Source: Escherichia phage PSD2001
DNA length: 64,000 nt
Sequence record: OK254198.1
Strand: one strand, 5' to 3'
Positions 4,467 through 47,720 of the stretch are shown here, in pieces. Positions within the stretch are counted from its first letter, which is position 1. The number at the start of each line of letters is the position of its first letter. The notes below the pieces were generated by a model. The model was not told the DNA's origin and made no database searches. It saw nothing but the letters and a program-made list of their open reading frames with translations. The translations under genes were made by a program, and so were the position numbers.

Positions 4467-5378
4467 TTAAAGGCCAGCCAGAAGGTCGTCAAGACCATCA
4501 TCAGAAGGCTCTGGAGTGCTTGGAGCAGTCGCAGTGCGTTCAGACTTAGCAGGTTTGCTGGAAGTGAAGTCTTCCATATCTTTATCAAAATCGTCCAGGT
4601 CAGCACCCAGTTTATCGGCTTGCGCAGCAGCTTTAGAAGCAGCACCACCGAGAGCAGCTGTACCCATTACTTTAGAGAATTTCTTCTGATTCTCTTCAAG
4701 AGATTTAAATACCAGCAATTCATTCAGGTCAGACATTTCGTCCCAAAGTTTTTTCTGGAATGCTTCATCATTGATGCCAGCGATTTCAGACTGGTTCATG
4801 AATTTGGAATCATCGTAGTTTTTATAATTGGAAACCATTTTAGATTTCAGTACGAAGTTCGCACCTTCAAAAGGACAGGTTACATCAACAGCTGTTTCGC
4901 CCATGTCAACATCGACTTCAACCATCTGGTTGATTTTGTCCATGATTTTCTTACCAAAGCGATATTTGAATACTTGACCTTCGTTAGACGGAACTGCAGG
5001 GTCTTTAATGACCAGGATGTTAGCCCAGTAAGAAGTATTACGCTTCAGTTTACGATATTCGGATTCGTTTGTATTGTACAGGTCATTCTTATTCATGTAC
5101 GCACACACAGGGCAGTTTTCATAATCGCCGTGAGTAGAAGTACAGTTTTCAATATACCATTGACCAGCATTTTTAAAGCCGTGGTTAACGAGCTTGATGA
5201 ATGGAGATGGATTTTCTTCATTCTTAGAAGGCAGGAAACGAATAACCGCAGAGCCGACGCCATCAGTATCTTTCAGTTTCCATTCTTTTTTATCGTCAGA
5301 AGAGAAACCAGAACCACCTTTAAGAGCGTTAAGGGAAGCAGCCAGGTCAGCAGGGTTTTTACGTTTAAACATAGACAT
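4467..5378 (-). CDS. 32: single-stranded DNA-binding protein gp32
   Basis: 303 aa; [23 protein letters not shown]...; Zn-binding Cys/His cluster; acidic C-terminus; terminator hairpin immediately downstream. Confidence 0.95.
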
Positions 5379-5438
5379 ATGATTTTCCTTAGATTATTTG
5401 ATTTTTAGCAGTTGTTTTGATTACGTATTAATTATACT

Positions 5439-6107
5439 TCAAAGTGCTTGAAGCGTTATTTGACAGTTTTTAACGGTCTCGATGAACAATTTACGAGCTT
5501 CAAGAGAATCTATATTTAAGATTTTCTTATAGGCATTTAGTTTGGTTGAATACTTTTCCCAAACCAAGTCGTTAGTCTGTTCATCATGTTTATTTATAAT
5601 ACCTAAAAATGAATCAAGCAAACAAAACGTTTCAAATGAGATAACATTCGATTGGAGAAGTTTGAAAATATAACTTGTGTTTACTTTAGTATTATACTCG
5701 AAAATCTCTTGGAGCGATTTGACTTCGACTTTCTTACTGAAGTAATATATGTTCTTTATATCATCTTCGTATACTTGTCTAATTCTTTTAAGTCGGCCAA
5801 TGTATTCCCTATAAAATATTAGAGCATCGGCATCACTTATATCGCCTATCCATGCATCCTGGTTTGCAACCAGGTTTGACATGAATATTAACGTTAATTC
5901 TTTAAGAGTGTACTTATCGCTAAGCTTTTCGAAAAAATACTTATCGCGACGTTTTTGATAAGCACTATCGGAGATTCGCATGGTCCAGTTATATTTGATA
6001 ATATCATAACGACCCGAAAAATGCTGTTTGATGGATAAGTACAGTTGGTATACTGATTTACCATTTATATATCGGTTGTTATTTGGAGGCATGCGAATCG
6101 TAATCAT
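5439..6107 (-). CDS. 59: helicase loader gp59
   Basis: 222 aa; MITIRMPPNNNRYINGKSVYQLYL... matches T4 gp59 along its length. Confidence 0.92.
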   Translation of the reverse strand: MITIRMPPNNNRYINGKSVYQLYLSIKQHFSGRYDIIKYNWTMRISDSAYQKRRDKYFFEKLSDKYTLKELTLIFMSNLVANQDAWIGDISDADALIFYREYIGRLKRIRQVYEDDIKNIYYFSKKVEVKSLQEIFEYNTKVNTSYIFKLLQSNVISFETFCLLDSFLGIINKHDEQTNDLVWEKYSTKLNAYKKILNIDSLEARKLFIETVKNCQITLQAL

Positions 6108-6397
6108 AACAAAAAGTCCAGCGTATTAGTTTTCTGTGTACGAGACATACTCGGACGAAGCAAGTTATCATCATATGCTTCATTCATAATCTTATCGACG
6201 ATTCCCGCAGGGATATATCGCGCAAAATTGCCTTCAGGAATTCCACGTTCTTCCAACCAGGCAGTCGCAGCTTCCAGATAAGACATTTCAGTTGACTCGA
6301 CCATAGCTTCAATATCAAGCCCGTTTTGCTGCTTACTAATCGCCCCGGAAGGCGATTCAGTTTTCTGTGTATCAAAATTAACTAAAGAGGACATCAT
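6104..6397 (-). CDS. 33: late transcription accessory protein gp33
   Basis: C-terminal 97 aa of the track ORF (start at internal MM) match T4 gp33 (...YLEAATAWLEERGIPE...KTNTLDFLL); upstream part of the track ORF overlaps dsbA. Confidence 0.8.
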   Translation of the reverse strand: MMSSLVNFDTQKTESPSGAISKQQNGLDIEAMVESTEMSYLEAATAWLEERGIPEGNFARYIPAGIVDKIMNEAYDDNLLRPSMSRTQKTNTLDFLL

Positions 6398-6647
6398 AGA
6401 GCTCCACAGCTTCGGTTTTTTCATCTTCAAAACGCTCACGAGTGCCTTTATGATACAGGCCGAGCTGTGTATTGAACATCTTACCGTCAACACCTAATTC
6501 AGTTTTTGCCTTGTCTTTAAGGTCTTTAATTTCGTCTGCATATGCTTCCATTTTTAATTTGGTATCGGAAGCAGCTTTAATCAGCTTGGCCAGTTCAGCA
6601 CCATGAGTATCAGGACAAAATTCAACTTTCACTTTTTTCTCTTTCAT
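6378..6647 (-). CDS. dsbA: dsDNA-binding protein DsbA (late transcription)
   Basis: 89 aa, same size as T4 DsbA, between rnh and 33. Confidence 0.8.
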   Translation of the reverse strand: MKEKKVKVEFCPDTHGAELAKLIKAASDTKLKMEAYADEIKDLKDKAKTELGVDGKMFNTQLGLYHKGTRERFEDEKTEAVELYDVLFS

Positions 6648-6655
6648 AATATACC

Positions 6656-7600
6656 TTAATAAAATTCGGCAATGTTTGCAGTTAGTTTAGACAGACCAGA
6701 CTTAACAAAGTAAGGATAAACTTTACTTTTAGCCGGGATAACGTAGTTATTATATCGTTCTAAGATTGAAGCGGATATTTCCGTTGGGATAAAGTCCATA
6801 TCAATCAACAATTGATTTTCACAGAATCTATTATATTGTTCTTCTGTTAAAAGCGTTTTCAAAACATCGTGGTCGTAATAGTTGAGTGCAATTTGTTCAA
6901 GCTCAGCGGCGCGGGTCGGTGGAGTGCGTTCGCCTTCTTCGTGGGTGTAATAAAAATCACCACGAACCTTGATGCTTGACACGTTATCTTTTTTGTCACC
7001 TTTAACAACCTTTGTCACGCAATCCATAAGGGCATCGCCTGATTTAGTTTTGACATATTTTTTCTGCATCGGGGACCATTGTTTCACCCCAGGGAATTTA
7101 TGTAGCTGTGTAAAGTCACCATCCGAAGAAACAATCATAACCGGATGTCCTAGACCAGTGAGCAACTTCGTTAATACTGCAATATGGTCATCAGCCTCGA
7201 CTTTATCCATATTCATCACGATGTAAGGCATATGTTTTTCCATTTCATCGATGATGATATGCATGGCAGCATGTAGACCTTCCCAATCGAATTGAGACTC
7301 TTCACGAGCTTTCGCACGGTTTTTCTTATAGTAATAAGATTTAGTCCGGCGCCAATAACCGTTCTTCGAGTTATCAACACAAATAATCGGAATCGTATAA
7401 CCGAGCTTCTTGAACTGCACAATATTTTTTCGGATAGAGTTTAGAACCAGGTGTCTGGTCATTGCAGTTGTTACCTTCGGAAAGCCTGCGTCTTTGCCGA
7501 ATTCCTGGAAGGCTGCAGCCATGATGAGCTGACTAAAATCGAGTAACTGAAAACCATCTTTTTGACGGTCTTCTTCAGGGAGTAAAAAATCTAAATTCAT
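6656..7600 (-). CDS. rnh: RNase H / FEN-type 5'-3' exonuclease
   Basis: 314 aa; ...GYWRR...YYKKNRAKAREES..DWEG...SSDGDFTQLHK... matches T4 RNase H. Confidence 0.93.
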   Translation of the reverse strand: MNLDFLLPEEDRQKDGFQLLDFSQLIMAAAFQEFGKDAGFPKVTTAMTRHLVLNSIRKNIVQFKKLGYTIPIICVDNSKNGYWRRTKSYYYKKNRAKAREESQFDWEGLHAAMHIIIDEMEKHMPYIVMNMDKVEADDHIAVLTKLLTGLGHPVMIVSSDGDFTQLHKFPGVKQWSPMQKKYVKTKSGDALMDCVTKVVKGDKKDNVSSIKVRGDFYYTHEEGERTPPTRAAELEQIALNYYDHDVLKTLLTEEQYNRFCENQLLIDMDFIPTEISASILERYNNYVIPAKSKVYPYFVKSGLSKLTANIAEFY

Positions 7601-44611: not shown

Positions 44612-44803
44612 TTATACAACGAAGATAGCTTTATCACCATTTGCATCAGTCACTTCATAAGTGTCTTCATGATACAACGGAATAATCCAGGTAACACCAT
44701 CATCAGCGATAACATGGATTGCTTCTTGGTCTTGCGACACGATTTCATATTCTTCAAAAATCTGGAAGACCGAAATCTTAGAGCCCGTACACATTGCACT
44801 CAT
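44612..44803 (-). CDS. hypothetical protein (63 aa)
   Basis: ORF track. Confidence 0.4.
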   Translation of the reverse strand: MSAMCTGSKISVFQIFEEYEIVSQDQEAIHVIADDGVTWIIPLYHEDTYEVTDANGDKAIFVV

Positions 44804-44999
44804 ATTGTTCCCTTCTTTTAATTAGTTGACGATGCGCCTTTTTAAGTTTACGAATCTGGCGTTTAGTTGGTCGAGCAACGTAAGCTTGAGTAGTTACTCG
44901 TCCAAAAACTCCATACTTGGGAGACGGCGTATCAATAAAGACTTCCCATTGGCAAGAGTAACTATATATTGCTTTAGAGAATTGGGTCAAAACAAACAT
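44778..44999 (-). CDS. hypothetical basic protein (73 aa)
   Basis: ORF track; basic C-terminal region. Confidence 0.45.
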   Translation of the reverse strand: MFVLTQFSKAIYSYSCQWEVFIDTPSPKYGVFGRVTTQAYVARPTKRQIRKLKKAHRQLIKRREQYECNVYGL

Positions 45000-45000
45000 A

Positions 45001-45046
45001 TTAACCTCGCTTCATGAAGGCATTAAAAATCTGGTCGTCGACAGAC
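45001..45046. repeat. ~45-bp near-identical direct repeat at the 3' ends of two adjacent genes (partner at ~45356-45401)
   Basis: ttaacctcgcttcatgaaggcattaaaaatctggtcgtcgac vs ttaatctcgcttcatgaaagcattaaaaatctggtcgtcaac. Confidence 0.8.
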
Positions 45047-45354
45047 TGTTCTTGAGCTTTGACCCAAGCCCCTTCCAAAATGTCATTTGCTTCAGTAGAT
45101 AGCATGACCCCAATTTCAGGGTTTCCGGTTATCCATGCTGCACAATCACGTACATTCTTTTTATCAAATGGATAGCCGCGAGTATCTTCATAAGGTCCAT
45201 TCATTACCATAAATGAGCGAGCCTTTATGATAACACCATCTTTAACGATAATATAACCAATCGCCTGATTAAACCGAGGCTCACGAAATTCATAATGAGC
45301 ATTACCATCATTATTGCTCGTCAGTTCAAAATTCAGAAAATTATAATAACTCAT
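45001..45354 (-). CDS. hypothetical protein (117 aa) with C-terminal tail SVDDQIFNAFMKRG shared with the next gene
   Basis: ORF track; ~45-bp near-identical DNA repeat at the 3' ends of both genes. Confidence 0.55.
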   Translation of the reverse strand: MSYYNFLNFELTSNNDGNAHYEFREPRFNQAIGYIIVKDGVIIKARSFMVMNGPYEDTRGYPFDKKNVRDCAAWITGNPEIGVMLSTEANDILEGAWVKAQEQSVDDQIFNAFMKRG

Positions 45355-45355
45355 A

Positions 45356-45796
45356 TTAATCTCGCTTCATGAAAGCATTAAAAATCTGGTCGTCAACTGA
45401 ATAAACAGGGGTTTCCAGAAGTTTCAAAAGACTGTTTTTGATGTACTTACCAGGGATACCCATATTAACAATACTGTCATTCAATTCATTATCTGGGATG
45501 ATGTCTTTAAATTCAAACCCGTCAAACTCAACCTTGTCAGGAATACCGTCAGCGAAAAAATAAACCAATTGGTGCATTGTATTGCGCGAAAATAATTTAG
45601 ACTTGACCGCAATAAGTTCTTGCCAATGGTTTAATTCTTTGTTAAGAAGTTTATGAGCAAACGTAATTCTATTGTCACTATCGACAAGAAAATAACCCAG
45701 GTATTGAATGGGTTCGTCGCTCCAAAACATCCTGTATGCTTGTGCATTTTGATTTTTACAACGAAGTTTTTTGATAACTAAATTTCTGTTAATCAT
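45356..45796 (-). CDS. hypothetical protein (146 aa) with C-terminal tail SVDDQIFNAFMKRD
   Basis: Internal Met start lying 1 nt after the sp stop; shared C-terminal tail. Confidence 0.55.
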   Translation of the reverse strand: MINRNLVIKKLRCKNQNAQAYRMFWSDEPIQYLGYFLVDSDNRITFAHKLLNKELNHWQELIAVKSKLFSRNTMHQLVYFFADGIPDKVEFDGFEFKDIIPDNELNDSIVNMGIPGKYIKNSLLKLLETPVYSVDDQIFNAFMKRD

Positions 45797-45797
45797 T

Positions 45798-46091
45798 TTA
45801 TTCACCTGTAACCCATTGAACAATCTTGCTGTTGTCAAATGAAGCATCGCAATACAGAACATAGTTATACTGCATAACGTCACCAGAAGCCAGTTGGTCA
45901 GATACTTCTTTAACCATATCAGGGTGGTCACGTTTAGTAATGTTCATGATATCAGCATAAATCTGATGTTCAACATCGGTCTGGTCAGCAGTCATGGACC
46001 ACTCACAAAGGTCTTTATCAAGTCCAGCAGTAACTGGAGCTGTACCACATGATGCTACGGTAAGAATTGCTGCGATTAATAACTTTTTCAT
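45798..46091 (-). CDS. sp: Spackle periplasmic protein (superinfection exclusion / lysozyme inhibitor)
   Basis: 97 aa; signal peptide; ...DKDLCEWSMTADQT.VE.QI.ADIMNI.KRD.P.M...GDVMQYNYVLYCD... matches T4 Sp. Confidence 0.9.
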   Translation of the reverse strand: MKKLLIAAILTVASCGTAPVTAGLDKDLCEWSMTADQTDVEHQIYADIMNITKRDHPDMVKEVSDQLASGDVMQYNYVLYCDASFDNSKIVQWVTGE

Positions 46092-46109
46092 TTCAATCTC
46101 CTCAGTAGT

Positions 46110-46152
46110 TGATAGGGATAATATACTGCATTATCCCTTTGATGTACACTTA
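46110..46152 (-). promoter_or_regulatory. early promoter with stem-loop (gggataat...attatccc)
   Basis: gatgtacact plus a perfect 8-bp inverted repeat; upstream of sp. Confidence 0.45.
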
Positions 46153-46491
46153 TTTTTCACCTTCAACTGAAAAACCGGTCAATTTGTAATATTCGGCACG
46201 TGCAATATGAAGAGCTGCTTCAATATCAGTAAGGCAGATTTCTTCATTTAACAGTTGCGCTTCAACGGTCAAAATCAGATTACGCAATGCGGTACCCTTA
46301 CGCATGTCTACTTTATGAATTAGCTTGTCATCAACAAAAGCTTCAACCAGCGCATTATAGTTATCAGCAGTCTTCTGGACATACCAGTGAATACCTGCGG
46401 GGTGGAACATGCTAGAACGTTCAAAAGATGGTACACCAACAGCACTCACTTTGATTGTTACTTTTACGCGGTCTTCTGGATTAAAAGCCAT
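46150..46491 (-). CDS. hypothetical protein (113 aa), tandem paralog of 46492..46704
   Basis: Shared segment NYNALVEAFVDDKLIHKVD vs VNNALVKAFVNDNKVFECD. Confidence 0.5.
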   Translation of the reverse strand: MAFNPEDRVKVTIKVSAVGVPSFERSSMFHPAGIHWYVQKTADNYNALVEAFVDDKLIHKVDMRKGTALRNLILTVEAQLLNEEICLTDIEAALHIARAEYYKLTGFSVEGEK

Positions 46492-46704
46492 TTAGATTTC
46501 CTCAGATAAGTGGATACGATAATCACATTCAAAAACTTTATTGTCATTAACAAAGGCTTTCACCAGCGCATTATTCACTTCTGCATACTGCACTGTAACC
46601 CATTCAATCATATTTTGGTCACTAACATCCAGCGCAGTTTCTTTGGTAAACATATTACCATTTTCAAACCAACCAATAAACACTACGTTCTCTAATTTAT
46701 ACAT
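46492..46704 (-). CDS. hypothetical protein (70 aa), tandem paralog of 46150..46491
   Basis: ORF track; shared motif. Confidence 0.5.
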   Translation of the reverse strand: MYKLENVVFIGWFENGNMFTKETALDVSDQNMIEWVTVQYAEVNNALVKAFVNDNKVFECDYRIHLSEEI

Positions 46705-47022
46705 TTAGATTTCCTCACAAAACGCCCAGTCTGCATGATAAACTGTTGCGCCTTTAGTATCATTTAAACAAACCACGTCAACAGGTGCAATCACACGATA
46801 AAGACGGGGTTCTCCTCCATACGAGCGAGCTGCTCTTCCTGCATAGATACGCGCCAAACCAATATCTTCAGTAAAAAACACACGCCCTAAATTTTTCTTA
46901 CGCCCAACTTCTGACAGAACACCAGTTACATCAGGAGGACAAAGCATATTTTGGATTCCAGCATTAGAGCTTGACCCATGATAATAAACTTTGTATTCTG
47001 CCTTGCAATCAATGGTTTTCAT
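46705..47022 (-). CDS. hypothetical protein (105 aa)
   Basis: ORF track; early promoter cassette upstream. Confidence 0.5.
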   Translation of the reverse strand: MKTIDCKAEYKVYYHGSSSNAGIQNMLCPPDVTGVLSEVGRKKNLGRVFFTEDIGLARIYAGRAARSYGGEPRLYRVIAPVDVVCLNDTKGATVYHADWAFCEEI

Positions 47023-47065
47023 TTTATTCTCCAGTAGTTGATAGAGTCATTATAACATAAGAAAA

Positions 47066-47082
47066 AGGGGCTGTAAGCCCCT
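47066..47082 (-). terminator. rho-independent terminator after 47091..47393
   Basis: aggggcTGTAAgcccct + T-run. Confidence 0.65.
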
Positions 47083-47090
47083 TTATTCAC

Positions 47091-47393
47091 TTACGCCAAC
47101 TCATAGTTGTGCATAGTCAGACAACGAATTTTCCCAGTAGTTGGGTGCATAACAGTCACACTAATTGTGTAATCATCGCACACGTTAACAAAAGGTTCAG
47201 CGATAACATATACTTCACCGCCTGCAAGCAGATACTCACGAAGAGAGCTGCGAACAGATGAAGGTTGAACATCGCTTTTGAGCTTTATTAATTTACCAGT
47301 TTGAATGCCTGATGCGATAAGAGCAGCACAGTTTTCATCACGGCGAGCGAATTGTCCAAAATAGTAACGATTCATGTCGGTTTGATTAAACAT
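47091..47393 (-). CDS. hypothetical protein (100 aa)
   Basis: ORF track; terminator hairpin downstream. Confidence 0.5.
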   Translation of the reverse strand: MFNQTDMNRYYFGQFARRDENCAALIASGIQTGKLIKLKSDVQPSSVRSSLREYLLAGGEVYVIAEPFVNVCDDYTISVTVMHPTTGKIRCLTMHNYELA

Positions 47394-47421: not shown

Positions 47422-47474
47422 TGTGTAACTCAGTATGGAATCATTATGTCCTAAGACAAGGGGGTTGTACACTA
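47422..47474. repeat. 53-bp exact direct repeat, copy 2
   Basis: Same 53-mer as at ~21099-21151. Confidence 0.85.
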
Positions 47475-47480
47475 TTTTAA
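47442..47480 (-). promoter_or_regulatory. early promoter cassette (second copy of the 53-bp exact repeat)
   Basis: Identical to the 21.1-kb copy. Confidence 0.65.
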
Positions 47481-47720
47481 TTCATTAATTAAATGAAAAT
47501 CTTGTGCATTGAAAGTAATGAAAAAATAATCATTCCCTTCAACTGAAGCATGACAAGCAACACTACACCAGCGCCTTGCTCTGTTCAATGAGCAATCCAA
47601 AATTTTAAAAGGCTTCAGACCAACAATGTCAGCTGTTCTTTTATTATGCTCACAAATATCAGCATACTTTTGGAGAGCTTCTTCAGATTTGAACTGGTAA
47701 TGCACATTAACTAATAACAT
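47472..47720 (-). CDS. hypothetical protein (82 aa) in the slot next to gene 41 where T4 carries dmd
   Basis: Position only; GAGGA RBS. Confidence 0.45.
   Translation of the reverse strand: MLLVNVHYQFKSEEALQKYADICEHNKRTADIVGLKPFKILDCSLNRARRWCSVACHASVEGNDYFFITFNAQDFHLINELK

Follow-up and report, generated by a model that had tools for sequence, protein, structure and literature searches.

The T4 locus named the "anti-TA (toxin-antitoxin) island" harbors dmd (anti-RnlA), tifA (anti-ToxN) and adfA, that is gene 61.2 (anti-DarT) (PMC9391042). The product of the latter, AdfA (anti-DarT factor A, T4 gp61.2, Pfam family PF23813), has been published as a protein without homology to known protein families and without structural homology to other proteins; AdfA(R164H) of RB69 binds DarT1, and T2 was described as having no adfA (PMC11257639). 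Here we analyze a 64,000-nucleotide (nt) stretch of Escherichia phage PSD2001 (OK254198.1; further referred to as the window), in which two adjacent early open reading frames (ORFs) located just downstream of the spackle gene (sp) end in the same short peptide: ORF1 (45001..45354, 117 amino acids, phrog_4122) and ORF2 (45356..45796, 146 amino acids, phrog_8539, VR7 gp039-like). All features of the window described below are on the minus strand. The source phage is T4-like and belongs to the genus Gaprivervirus; in this region it shares 97% identity with Escherichia phages UPEC01 and VR20. The start of ORF2 was set at the ATG at 45796, as initiation at a GTG further upstream would make the ORF overlap spackle and does not agree with the annotation of the relatives. 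The shared tail is also the C-terminus of AdfA, and it is probably a selected common docking or inhibitory tag on a small, fast-diverging counter-defence family made up of AdfA, ORF1-type ("half-AdfA") and ORF2-type proteins.

In a BLASTP comparison, ORF1 and ORF2 align only over 13 residues, SVDDQIFNAFMKR (100% identical, E = 2e-6), which are followed by a terminal Gly in ORF1 and a terminal Asp in ORF2, so that the tails read SVDDQIFNAFMKRG and SVDDQIFNAFMKRD, respectively. The tail-coding segments (codons S104-G117 of ORF1 at 45004..45045 and codons S133-D146 of ORF2 at 45359..45400) belong to a single 49-nt direct repeat with 92% identity (44997-45045 vs 45352-45400, spacing 355 nt), the 34-nt core of which occurs exactly twice in the window, with zero occurrences expected from 100 shuffles. 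The 14 tail codons contain four differences, three of them synonymous (TCT/TCA, GTC/GTT and GCC/GCT) and one exchanging Gly and Asp (GGT/GAT). A preliminary description made from the letters alone (the sequence-only reading) had reported a near-identical repeat encoding a common tail on these two genes, and both the repeat search and the BLASTP alignment bear this out. It had placed the end of the repeat at the stop codon, which is wrong, as both copies extend 4 nt beyond the stop codon and, with TAA-T-ATG, take in the start codon of the gene that follows. It had further called the two genes otherwise dissimilar, and had named a repeat spanning the full genes, as in a simple tandem duplication, as what would speak against its view. 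BLASTP aligns nothing beyond the 13 tail residues, and at this level the description holds; it does not hold for more sensitive comparisons (see below), by which ORF1 is a demonstrable homolog of AdfA and ORF2 probably has the same fold.

The sequence-only reading had also suggested looking for the same tail in related phages, and had missed that it ends AdfA. T4 gp61.2 terminates in VSIDDQIFNAFMNRG, the RB69 adfA product ends with IFNAFMNRG, as deduced from published primers (PMC11257639), and the last 16 residues of ORF1 match the last 16 positions of the Pfam AdfA model, with a similar cross-match to phrog_3781. Like AdfA of T4 and RB69, the proteins of the window combine the slot immediately after spackle with a C-terminal ...DDQIFNAFM(N/K)RG. 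A scan for DNA encoding DDQIFNAFM identified 16 loci in viral contigs and 12 in metagenome contigs, and no match in 185,579 bacterial and archaeal genomes of a species-representative collection; a bacterial or host origin of the tail was rejected, given zero exact-pattern matches in this collection. Every match was the C-terminus of an AdfA (208-216 amino acids), an ORF1-type (116-125 amino acids) or an ORF2-type protein (144-148 amino acids), and in all pattern-scan loci with a readable upstream gene the tail gene immediately followed sp. The 66 proteins retrieved by a profile search of a 5.8-billion-protein collection all belonged to the same three families. Among 50,697 phage records the tail was found at 906 places in 708 records, and the bodies taken without their tails were found in the phage genome collection at 910 places (335 for ORF1, 88 for ORF2 and 487 for AdfA); therefore practically all members carry the tail, and no fourth family is needed to account for it.

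Loci anchored at sp were retrieved independently of the tail and hence form an unbiased sample. The slot was occupied by tail-bearing genes in 16 of the 19 such loci, and three distant ones had an unrelated 69-amino-acid gene without the tail. The observed arrangements with AdfA were sp-AdfA-61.1 (T4), sp-AdfA-ORF1type-61.1 and sp-AdfA-65aa (RB69-like); those with an ORF1-type gene and neither AdfA nor ORF2 were sp-ORF1type-61.1 and sp-ORF1type-64aa; and those with ORF2 were sp-ORF2-tifA-like, sp-ORF2-ORF1-tifA-like (this window, VR20 and VR25) and sp-ORF2-ORF1-63aa. Gaprivervirus-type ORF1 is present in about 33 of the 85 ORF2-bearing phage records. Roughly 300 Tequatrovirus-type records have an ORF1-type gene, and about 160 of these apparently have AdfA too, both figures being estimates from match counts. 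Of the T2-group phages, RB14 (NC_012638.1) carries an ORF1-type single-domain paralog of AdfA, as apparently does RB32 (DQ904452.1), in which tail matches were found. The T2 record PV648364.1 has a tail match too, and T2 is probably among the phages with a single-domain AdfA paralog in the slot.

The consensus of the peptide is S-(V/I)-D-D-Q-I-F-N-A-F-M-(K/N)-R-G, preceded by a linker of variable length. To determine the level of constraint, codons encoding the same residue were compared within families, and the fraction of differing pairs in the tail was set against that in the body. The two fractions were 0.18 and 0.18 in AdfA, 0.30 and 0.29 in ORF1, and 0.16 and 0.18 in ORF2, whereas at the amino acid level there were no differences within families in the nine-residue core DDQIFNAFM, as opposed to 0.15-0.49 in the bodies. 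The exact tail is retained even in ORF1-type proteins that are only 28-47% identical to ORF1 in the body. Free synonymous variation with fixed residues places the constraint on the peptide and not on the DNA or RNA; the tail is under purifying selection at the protein level.

A word-indexed protein search with ORF1 alone returned close relatives only. For a comparison of the bodies, the tails were trimmed from all sequences. A hidden Markov model (HMM) built from the trimmed ORF1 family matched two stretches of trimmed AdfA (residues 39-74 and 125-175) with a score of 30 bits, with none of 3000 shuffled decoys above 8.4 bits, and hhalign supported the similarity of ORF1 to both the C-terminal (P = 3.5e-5) and the N-terminal half of AdfA (P = 6.4e-4). 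In an exhaustive HMMER search of 1.84 billion representatives, AdfA was recovered at E = 2e-9 (profile positions 19-118 vs residues 112-210), and the only real homologs of the ORF1 profile were the ORF1 family and AdfA; therefore the domain was not detected in this search outside the phage group. One further match, P0068 (1035 amino acids, E = 2e-5), was rejected as a false positive in which seven weak repeat matches had been summed; this repetitive, Ig-like surface protein contains a unit of about 84 residues in eight near-identical copies. The window proteins stay below the 27-bit gathering cut-off of the Pfam AdfA model (ORF1, 20.6 bits, residues 102-117 vs profile positions 196-211, that is, the tail only; ORF2, no match), and a Tequatrovirus ORF1-type protein, P0024, passes it with 32.4 bits (residues 21-118 vs profile positions 112-211). 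Since ORF1 is homologous to both halves, AdfA consists of two internally duplicated copies of a domain about 100 residues long, with ORF1 as a single-domain paralog. Unlike AdfA, in which two tandem domains (208-216 amino acids in total) are followed by one tail, ORF1 and ORF2 have one folded domain and one tail each.

Among the parts homologous between ORF1 and the AdfA domains is the helix bearing the DarT1-specificity residue 164 of RB69 AdfA (NNIN[H/R]IASVYF), which aligns to the conserved ORF1 helix KKNVRDCA. The residue aligned to position 164 is Asp70 in ORF1, and Asn or His in Tequatrovirus ORF1-type proteins.

For ORF2 the relationship is more remote. The HMM scores of its body against the ORF1 and AdfA bodies are within the decoy range; pairwise shuffle tests gave a mean z of 1.7 against the C-terminal half of AdfA, with 38% of the pairs at p<0.05, and nothing against ORF1; hhalign produced a weak match to ORF1 (P = 0.022) at the equivalent beta-hairpin. 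The AlphaFold models of ORF1 and ORF2 agree in the order of their elements, namely four antiparallel strands, a short strand, a helix, a strand and a C-terminal helix or tail. In Foldseek searches, the ORF1 model matched the BFVD model of the VR25 ORF2 ortholog (E = 4e-4, TMq 0.58; the match includes the identical tail) and also an AdfA-sized protein (E = 6e-3), and in the opposite direction the ORF2 model, which is the weaker one, matched nothing but its own ortholog. A common ancestry of ORF2 and the AdfA domain is probable, and the two genes look like very old diverged paralogs, neither unrelated genes nor a simple recent duplication. A "split AdfA", with ORF2 corresponding to the N-terminal domain of AdfA and ORF2+ORF1 being colinear with it, was suggested by three blocks visible by eye and was rejected after shuffle tests (mean z 0.5).

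The models also place the tail outside the folded domain. The mean predicted local distance difference test (pLDDT) score of the AlphaFold2 model is 81 for ORF1 and about 55 for its tail; in ORF2 the body reaches 75-86 and residues 103-146 are below 50, so the predicted layout of this protein is a folded domain of about 100 amino acids, a low-confidence linker of about 30 amino acids, and the tail. The tail is the lowest-confidence part of both models, and the linker preceding it differs between members both in sequence and in length (by up to about 15 residues). With the 22-residue tail region as query, phmmer retrieved no PDB sequence at E<=10.

We then considered how much of the DNA similarity requires an explanation of its own. 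The window pair has 36 of 39 nt in common. With an identical peptide and the codon usage of the phage, 31.3 would be expected (P = 0.016), and conservation of the peptide therefore explains most of the similarity in DNA. Across phages, the tails group by phage lineage and not by gene family: within a phage group, paralogous tails differ in 25% and orthologous ones in 20% of synonymous codons, and across groups the corresponding values are 42% and 37%. The near-even codon usage of this phage does not explain such clustering, which therefore indicates that tails have been exchanged or homogenized within lineages. Hence the recent gene conversion proposed in the sequence-only reading is weakly supported for this genome: there is a signal of homogenization at the level of lineages, and the three synonymous differences between the window copies mean that any conversion was not recent.

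The conserved tail DNA coincides with gene-sized insertions or deletions and with mosaic breakpoints. VR26 corresponds to VR25 minus a 361-nt block comprising the ORF1 body and tail and bounded by TTAATATG, and the two phages share 83% identity on the upstream side of the junction and 98% on its downstream side. Similarly, loss of the ORF1-type gene from the arrangement of the metagenome phage L049, by way of 37 nt that are identical in the two tails, gives that of T4. Recombination of T4 at homologies of 6-10 bp is known from this same locus (PMC9391042).

At the 3'-end of the tail the sequence has a second use. The last codons, for Arg-Gly, (A/C)GA-GGT, constitute a Shine-Dalgarno sequence 6 nt before the start of the next gene, which begins one base after the stop codon in all inspected loci but L055. 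In the window, the first junction (44997..45012) reads AAG CGA GGT TAA T ATG: the Shine-Dalgarno GAGG is contained in the ORF1 codons for Arg-Gly, and a single base separates the stop codon of ORF1 from the ATG of the tifA-like gene, which on the basis of this arrangement is predicted to be translationally coupled to ORF1. The second junction (45352..45367), AAG CGA GAT TAA T ATG, has a weakened Shine-Dalgarno sequence (GAGA) before ORF1. Shine-Dalgarno-weakening variants, KRD and NKG, occur before ORF1-type genes, and KRD also in VR26, which has no ORF1. In L055 (3370-3390) the junction between the tail and the next gene contains a 9-nt tandem duplication, AGAGGCTAA AGAGGCTAATG, which copies the Shine-Dalgarno sequence and the stop codon and is a small slippage or recombination footprint right at the junction. 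Four different genes follow the tail (61.1, a tifA-like gene, a gene of 63-67 amino acids and an ORF1-type gene). Structure in the junction RNA was considered and rejected, as the folding energies at both window junctions and at the T4 junction are no better than those of shuffles (z = 0.77, 0.60 and -0.53). It seems that only the last codons of the tail have a role at the nucleotide level, as ribosome-binding site of the next gene.

The slot that follows spackle in the anti-toxin island of T-even phages thus holds one or two genes of the three families, with globular domains diverged to the edge of recognition or beyond and the C-terminal peptide kept in all of them. These observations would fit the following mechanism. 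The peptide would be a putative short linear motif contacting one conserved partner, and the variable domains may supply target specificity; the DarT1-specificity residue 164 of AdfA lies in a domain and not in the tail. Two versions can be envisaged, one in which the tail would act as a "warhead" inserted into a conserved site of DarT-type toxins, and another in which it would serve for docking on a phage or host machine that is itself conserved. Conservation of the peptide leaves about 40 nt of DNA almost unchanged, a patch that T4-type recombination could use to add, remove and homogenize cassettes.

Several points weigh against a selected docking or inhibitory tag. Much of the sampling used the DDQIFNAFM pattern or word searches seeded with the tail, so that the absence of changes in the core is partly built in; only the sp-anchored loci and the balance of tail and body counts are unbiased, and both agree with an invariant core. 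The low pLDDT stems from shallow alignments and is no proof of disorder, and in the ORF1 model a long helix (residues 87-115) has the tail as its last part. As 30% of shuffles reach the helical hydrophobic moment of the tail, an unusually amphipathic helix was discarded. Finally, the fold link between ORF2 and AdfA relies on the one-way Foldseek match that includes the identical tail. On the other side, the proposal of a selected C-terminal tag, already made in the sequence-only reading, gains from the invariance of the core in three families and several genera, from synonymous turnover equal to that of the bodies, and from the placement of the tail outside the modeled domains.

The alternatives differ in what they take to be conserved. 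If the genes arose by an old tandem duplication, the tail could be an integral structural element of the shared fold, kept for folding, stability or self-association. The homology of ORF1 to both halves of AdfA, the common order of secondary-structure elements with the fold match between ORF1 and ORF2, and the ORF1 tail modeled as a continuation of the last helix are in line with this, yet the N-terminal domain of AdfA has the fold without the tail, the linker varies in length and in ORF2 includes about 30 low-confidence residues, the tail itself has the lowest pLDDT in both models, and an element of the core should change along with the domains, which have diverged strongly, while the tail stays identical; we consider this explanation improbable. 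About equally doubtful is that the repeat is a DNA-level recombination "linker", or a product of recent gene conversion, with a peptide that has no function of its own. The excess similarity of the window pair, the clustering of tails by lineage, the breakpoints at the tail and junction, and the efficient recombination of T4 at short homologies (PMC9391042) would all be expected then, but conservation for recombination should affect all positions of a codon alike. What is seen is variation at third positions to the same extent as in the bodies, with the amino acids alone being fixed; one and the same peptide is encoded in phage groups between which 37-42% of the synonymous codons of the tail differ, and the window copies themselves differ at three synonymous sites.

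A further explanation, that the segment is conserved as a translation-initiation or coupling RNA element for the following gene and that the peptide is a by-product, seems very unlikely. It agrees with the regular spacing of stop codon, one base and ATG across the inspected loci (apart from the duplication in L055), with the Shine-Dalgarno sequence formed by the Arg-Gly codons, with the KRD and NKG changes exactly where an ORF1-type gene follows (VR26 excepted), and with the published deletion in T4 adfA (residues 65-196), which spares the last 12 codons (PMC11257639). However, it accounts for the last two to three codons only, as synonymous sites in the nine codons before these are free to vary; moreover, the junction RNAs fold no better than shuffles, and with four different following genes there is no common downstream partner sequence.

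For a docking tag, one specific partner can be named as a long shot. The C-termini of the gp43/gp55 type are hydrophobic and acidic epitopes that bind the sliding clamp and are attached by divergent linkers (PMC2988020). In this phage gp43, the DNA polymerase, ends in ATLFDMFDF, and the tail core QIFNAFM fits the same pattern, hydrophobic-F-(D/N)-x-F, which among the real genes of the window is found within the last 16 residues of gp43, ORF1 and ORF2 only. The tail, with acidic DD and then I-F-x-x-F-M on a variable linker, is similar to the gp45 clamp epitopes of T4 gp43, gp55 and gp33 in its peptide-on-linker architecture, and to gp43 of this phage in a five-residue resemblance (I-F-N-A-F vs L-F-D-M-F), the latter being a short pattern noticed after the fact. 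Unlike these epitopes, the tail ends with basic K/N-R-G and not with acidic or aromatic residues, and gp55 (DLDFLYG) fits a different register. We therefore regard it as rather unlikely that the tail is a gp45-binding peptide tethering diversifying AdfA-type anti-toxin domains to the phage replisome. If it were, counter-defence proteins would be clients of the clamp "tool-belt", at the site of contact between DarT-type enzymes and single-stranded phage DNA.

Two other systems offer partial parallels. In toxin-antitoxin-chaperone systems, unrelated antitoxin families reportedly carry a short C-terminal ChAD (chaperone-addiction) element recognized by a common partner (10.1101/2024.02.24.581848). 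The likeness consists in a short common C-terminal element across divergent families and is an analogy only, as, in contrast to those systems, the locus has no SecB-like chaperone gene. PeSL (promoter plus stem-loop) cassettes, reportedly described by Arbiol et al. in 2010, are said to be non-coding units that mediate modular gene shuffling in T4-type phages. The tail DNA resembles these and microhomology exchange (PMC9391042) as a short conserved sequence at a gene boundary of a variable early region that coincides with gene gain or loss and mosaic breakpoints. Unlike PeSLs, it is coding, and it is conserved at the level of the peptide and not of the nucleotides.

The gene order of the locus in the window is the gp41 helicase gene, three small ORFs, dmd, a dmd-like paralog, spackle, ORF2, ORF1, a tifA/61.4-like gene (DUF7279), a 63-amino-acid gene, 61.1 and the primase gene of gp61. 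Spackle (45798..46091; Pfam T4_Spackle, E = 2.5e-43) is the conserved left anchor of the slot. A promoter-like site upstream of it (46120..46148), detected as a consensus match only, may drive sp-ORF2-ORF1-tifA-like as a single unit. The tifA-like gene (44778..44999; Pfam DUF7279, E = 3e-20) has 39% identity to T4 gp61.4 (E = 1e-13). This homolog of anti-ToxN tifA is located downstream of the AdfA-type genes here and between dmd and spackle in T4, and therefore the gene order of the anti-toxin island has been rearranged in this genus; in L052 and L055 the DUF7279 gene stays upstream of sp.

The dmd gene (46492-46704) and its downstream neighbor (46150-46491, 113 amino acids) are diverged paralogs and constitute a second adjacent, partly similar gene pair in the island. 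Their proteins are 31% identical over 58 residues (BLASTP, E = 1e-6), the 113-amino-acid protein having a weak match to Pfam Dmd and an additional C-terminal part, and a 34-nt repeat with 88% identity (46325-46358 vs 46541-46574) encodes NALV(E/K)AFV(D/N)D. Scans of the neighboring small genes with Pfam and PADLOC yielded nothing relevant; in particular, the three small genes between gp41 and dmd (46705-47022, 47091-47393 and 47472-47720) received no assignment from either, one of their products, of 82 amino acids, having a sub-threshold match to a CGNR zinc finger. As they share the island, they are candidates for additional anti-defence functions. A GC-rich stem-loop with a T-run at 47049-47084 overlaps a good sigma-70-like promoter (CTTACA-17-TATAAT, TG) upstream of a 105-amino-acid gene, and a second promoter-like site, with an 18-nt inverted repeat, is found upstream of spackle at 46105-46148; both resemble the promoter-plus-stem-loop cassettes that are reported to occur at gene boundaries of T4-type phages. 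In L027 (IMGVR_UViG_2974741249_000001, Escherichia phage vB_EcoM_005-like), the primase gene 61 is seemingly split into several short ORFs (5331-6830) and is preceded by a 176-amino-acid ORF absent from the relatives, which may reflect a homing-endonuclease insertion or sequencing errors.

In the literature searched, whose coverage did not extend to the original AdfA paper, there was no account of the shared tail, of the single-domain paralogs, of the internal duplication of AdfA or of a third family linked to it by the tail only. AdfA and its Pfam model, tail included, are already known, and AdfA is one of the few characterized phage inhibitors of toxin-antitoxin defence. Single-domain paralogs of it occupy the same slot in hundreds of T-even-type phages, and one invariant C-terminal peptide, under purely protein-level constraint, is common to AdfA, to these paralogs and to a third, much more divergent family, the ORF2 type. 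ORF1-type and ORF2-type genes are therefore candidate anti-toxin factors, and the tail offers a precise target of 9-12 residues for experiments on how AdfA-type proteins may work. The case illustrates how a strongly selected peptide may create a patch of DNA homology that recombination uses to shuffle counter-defence cassettes.

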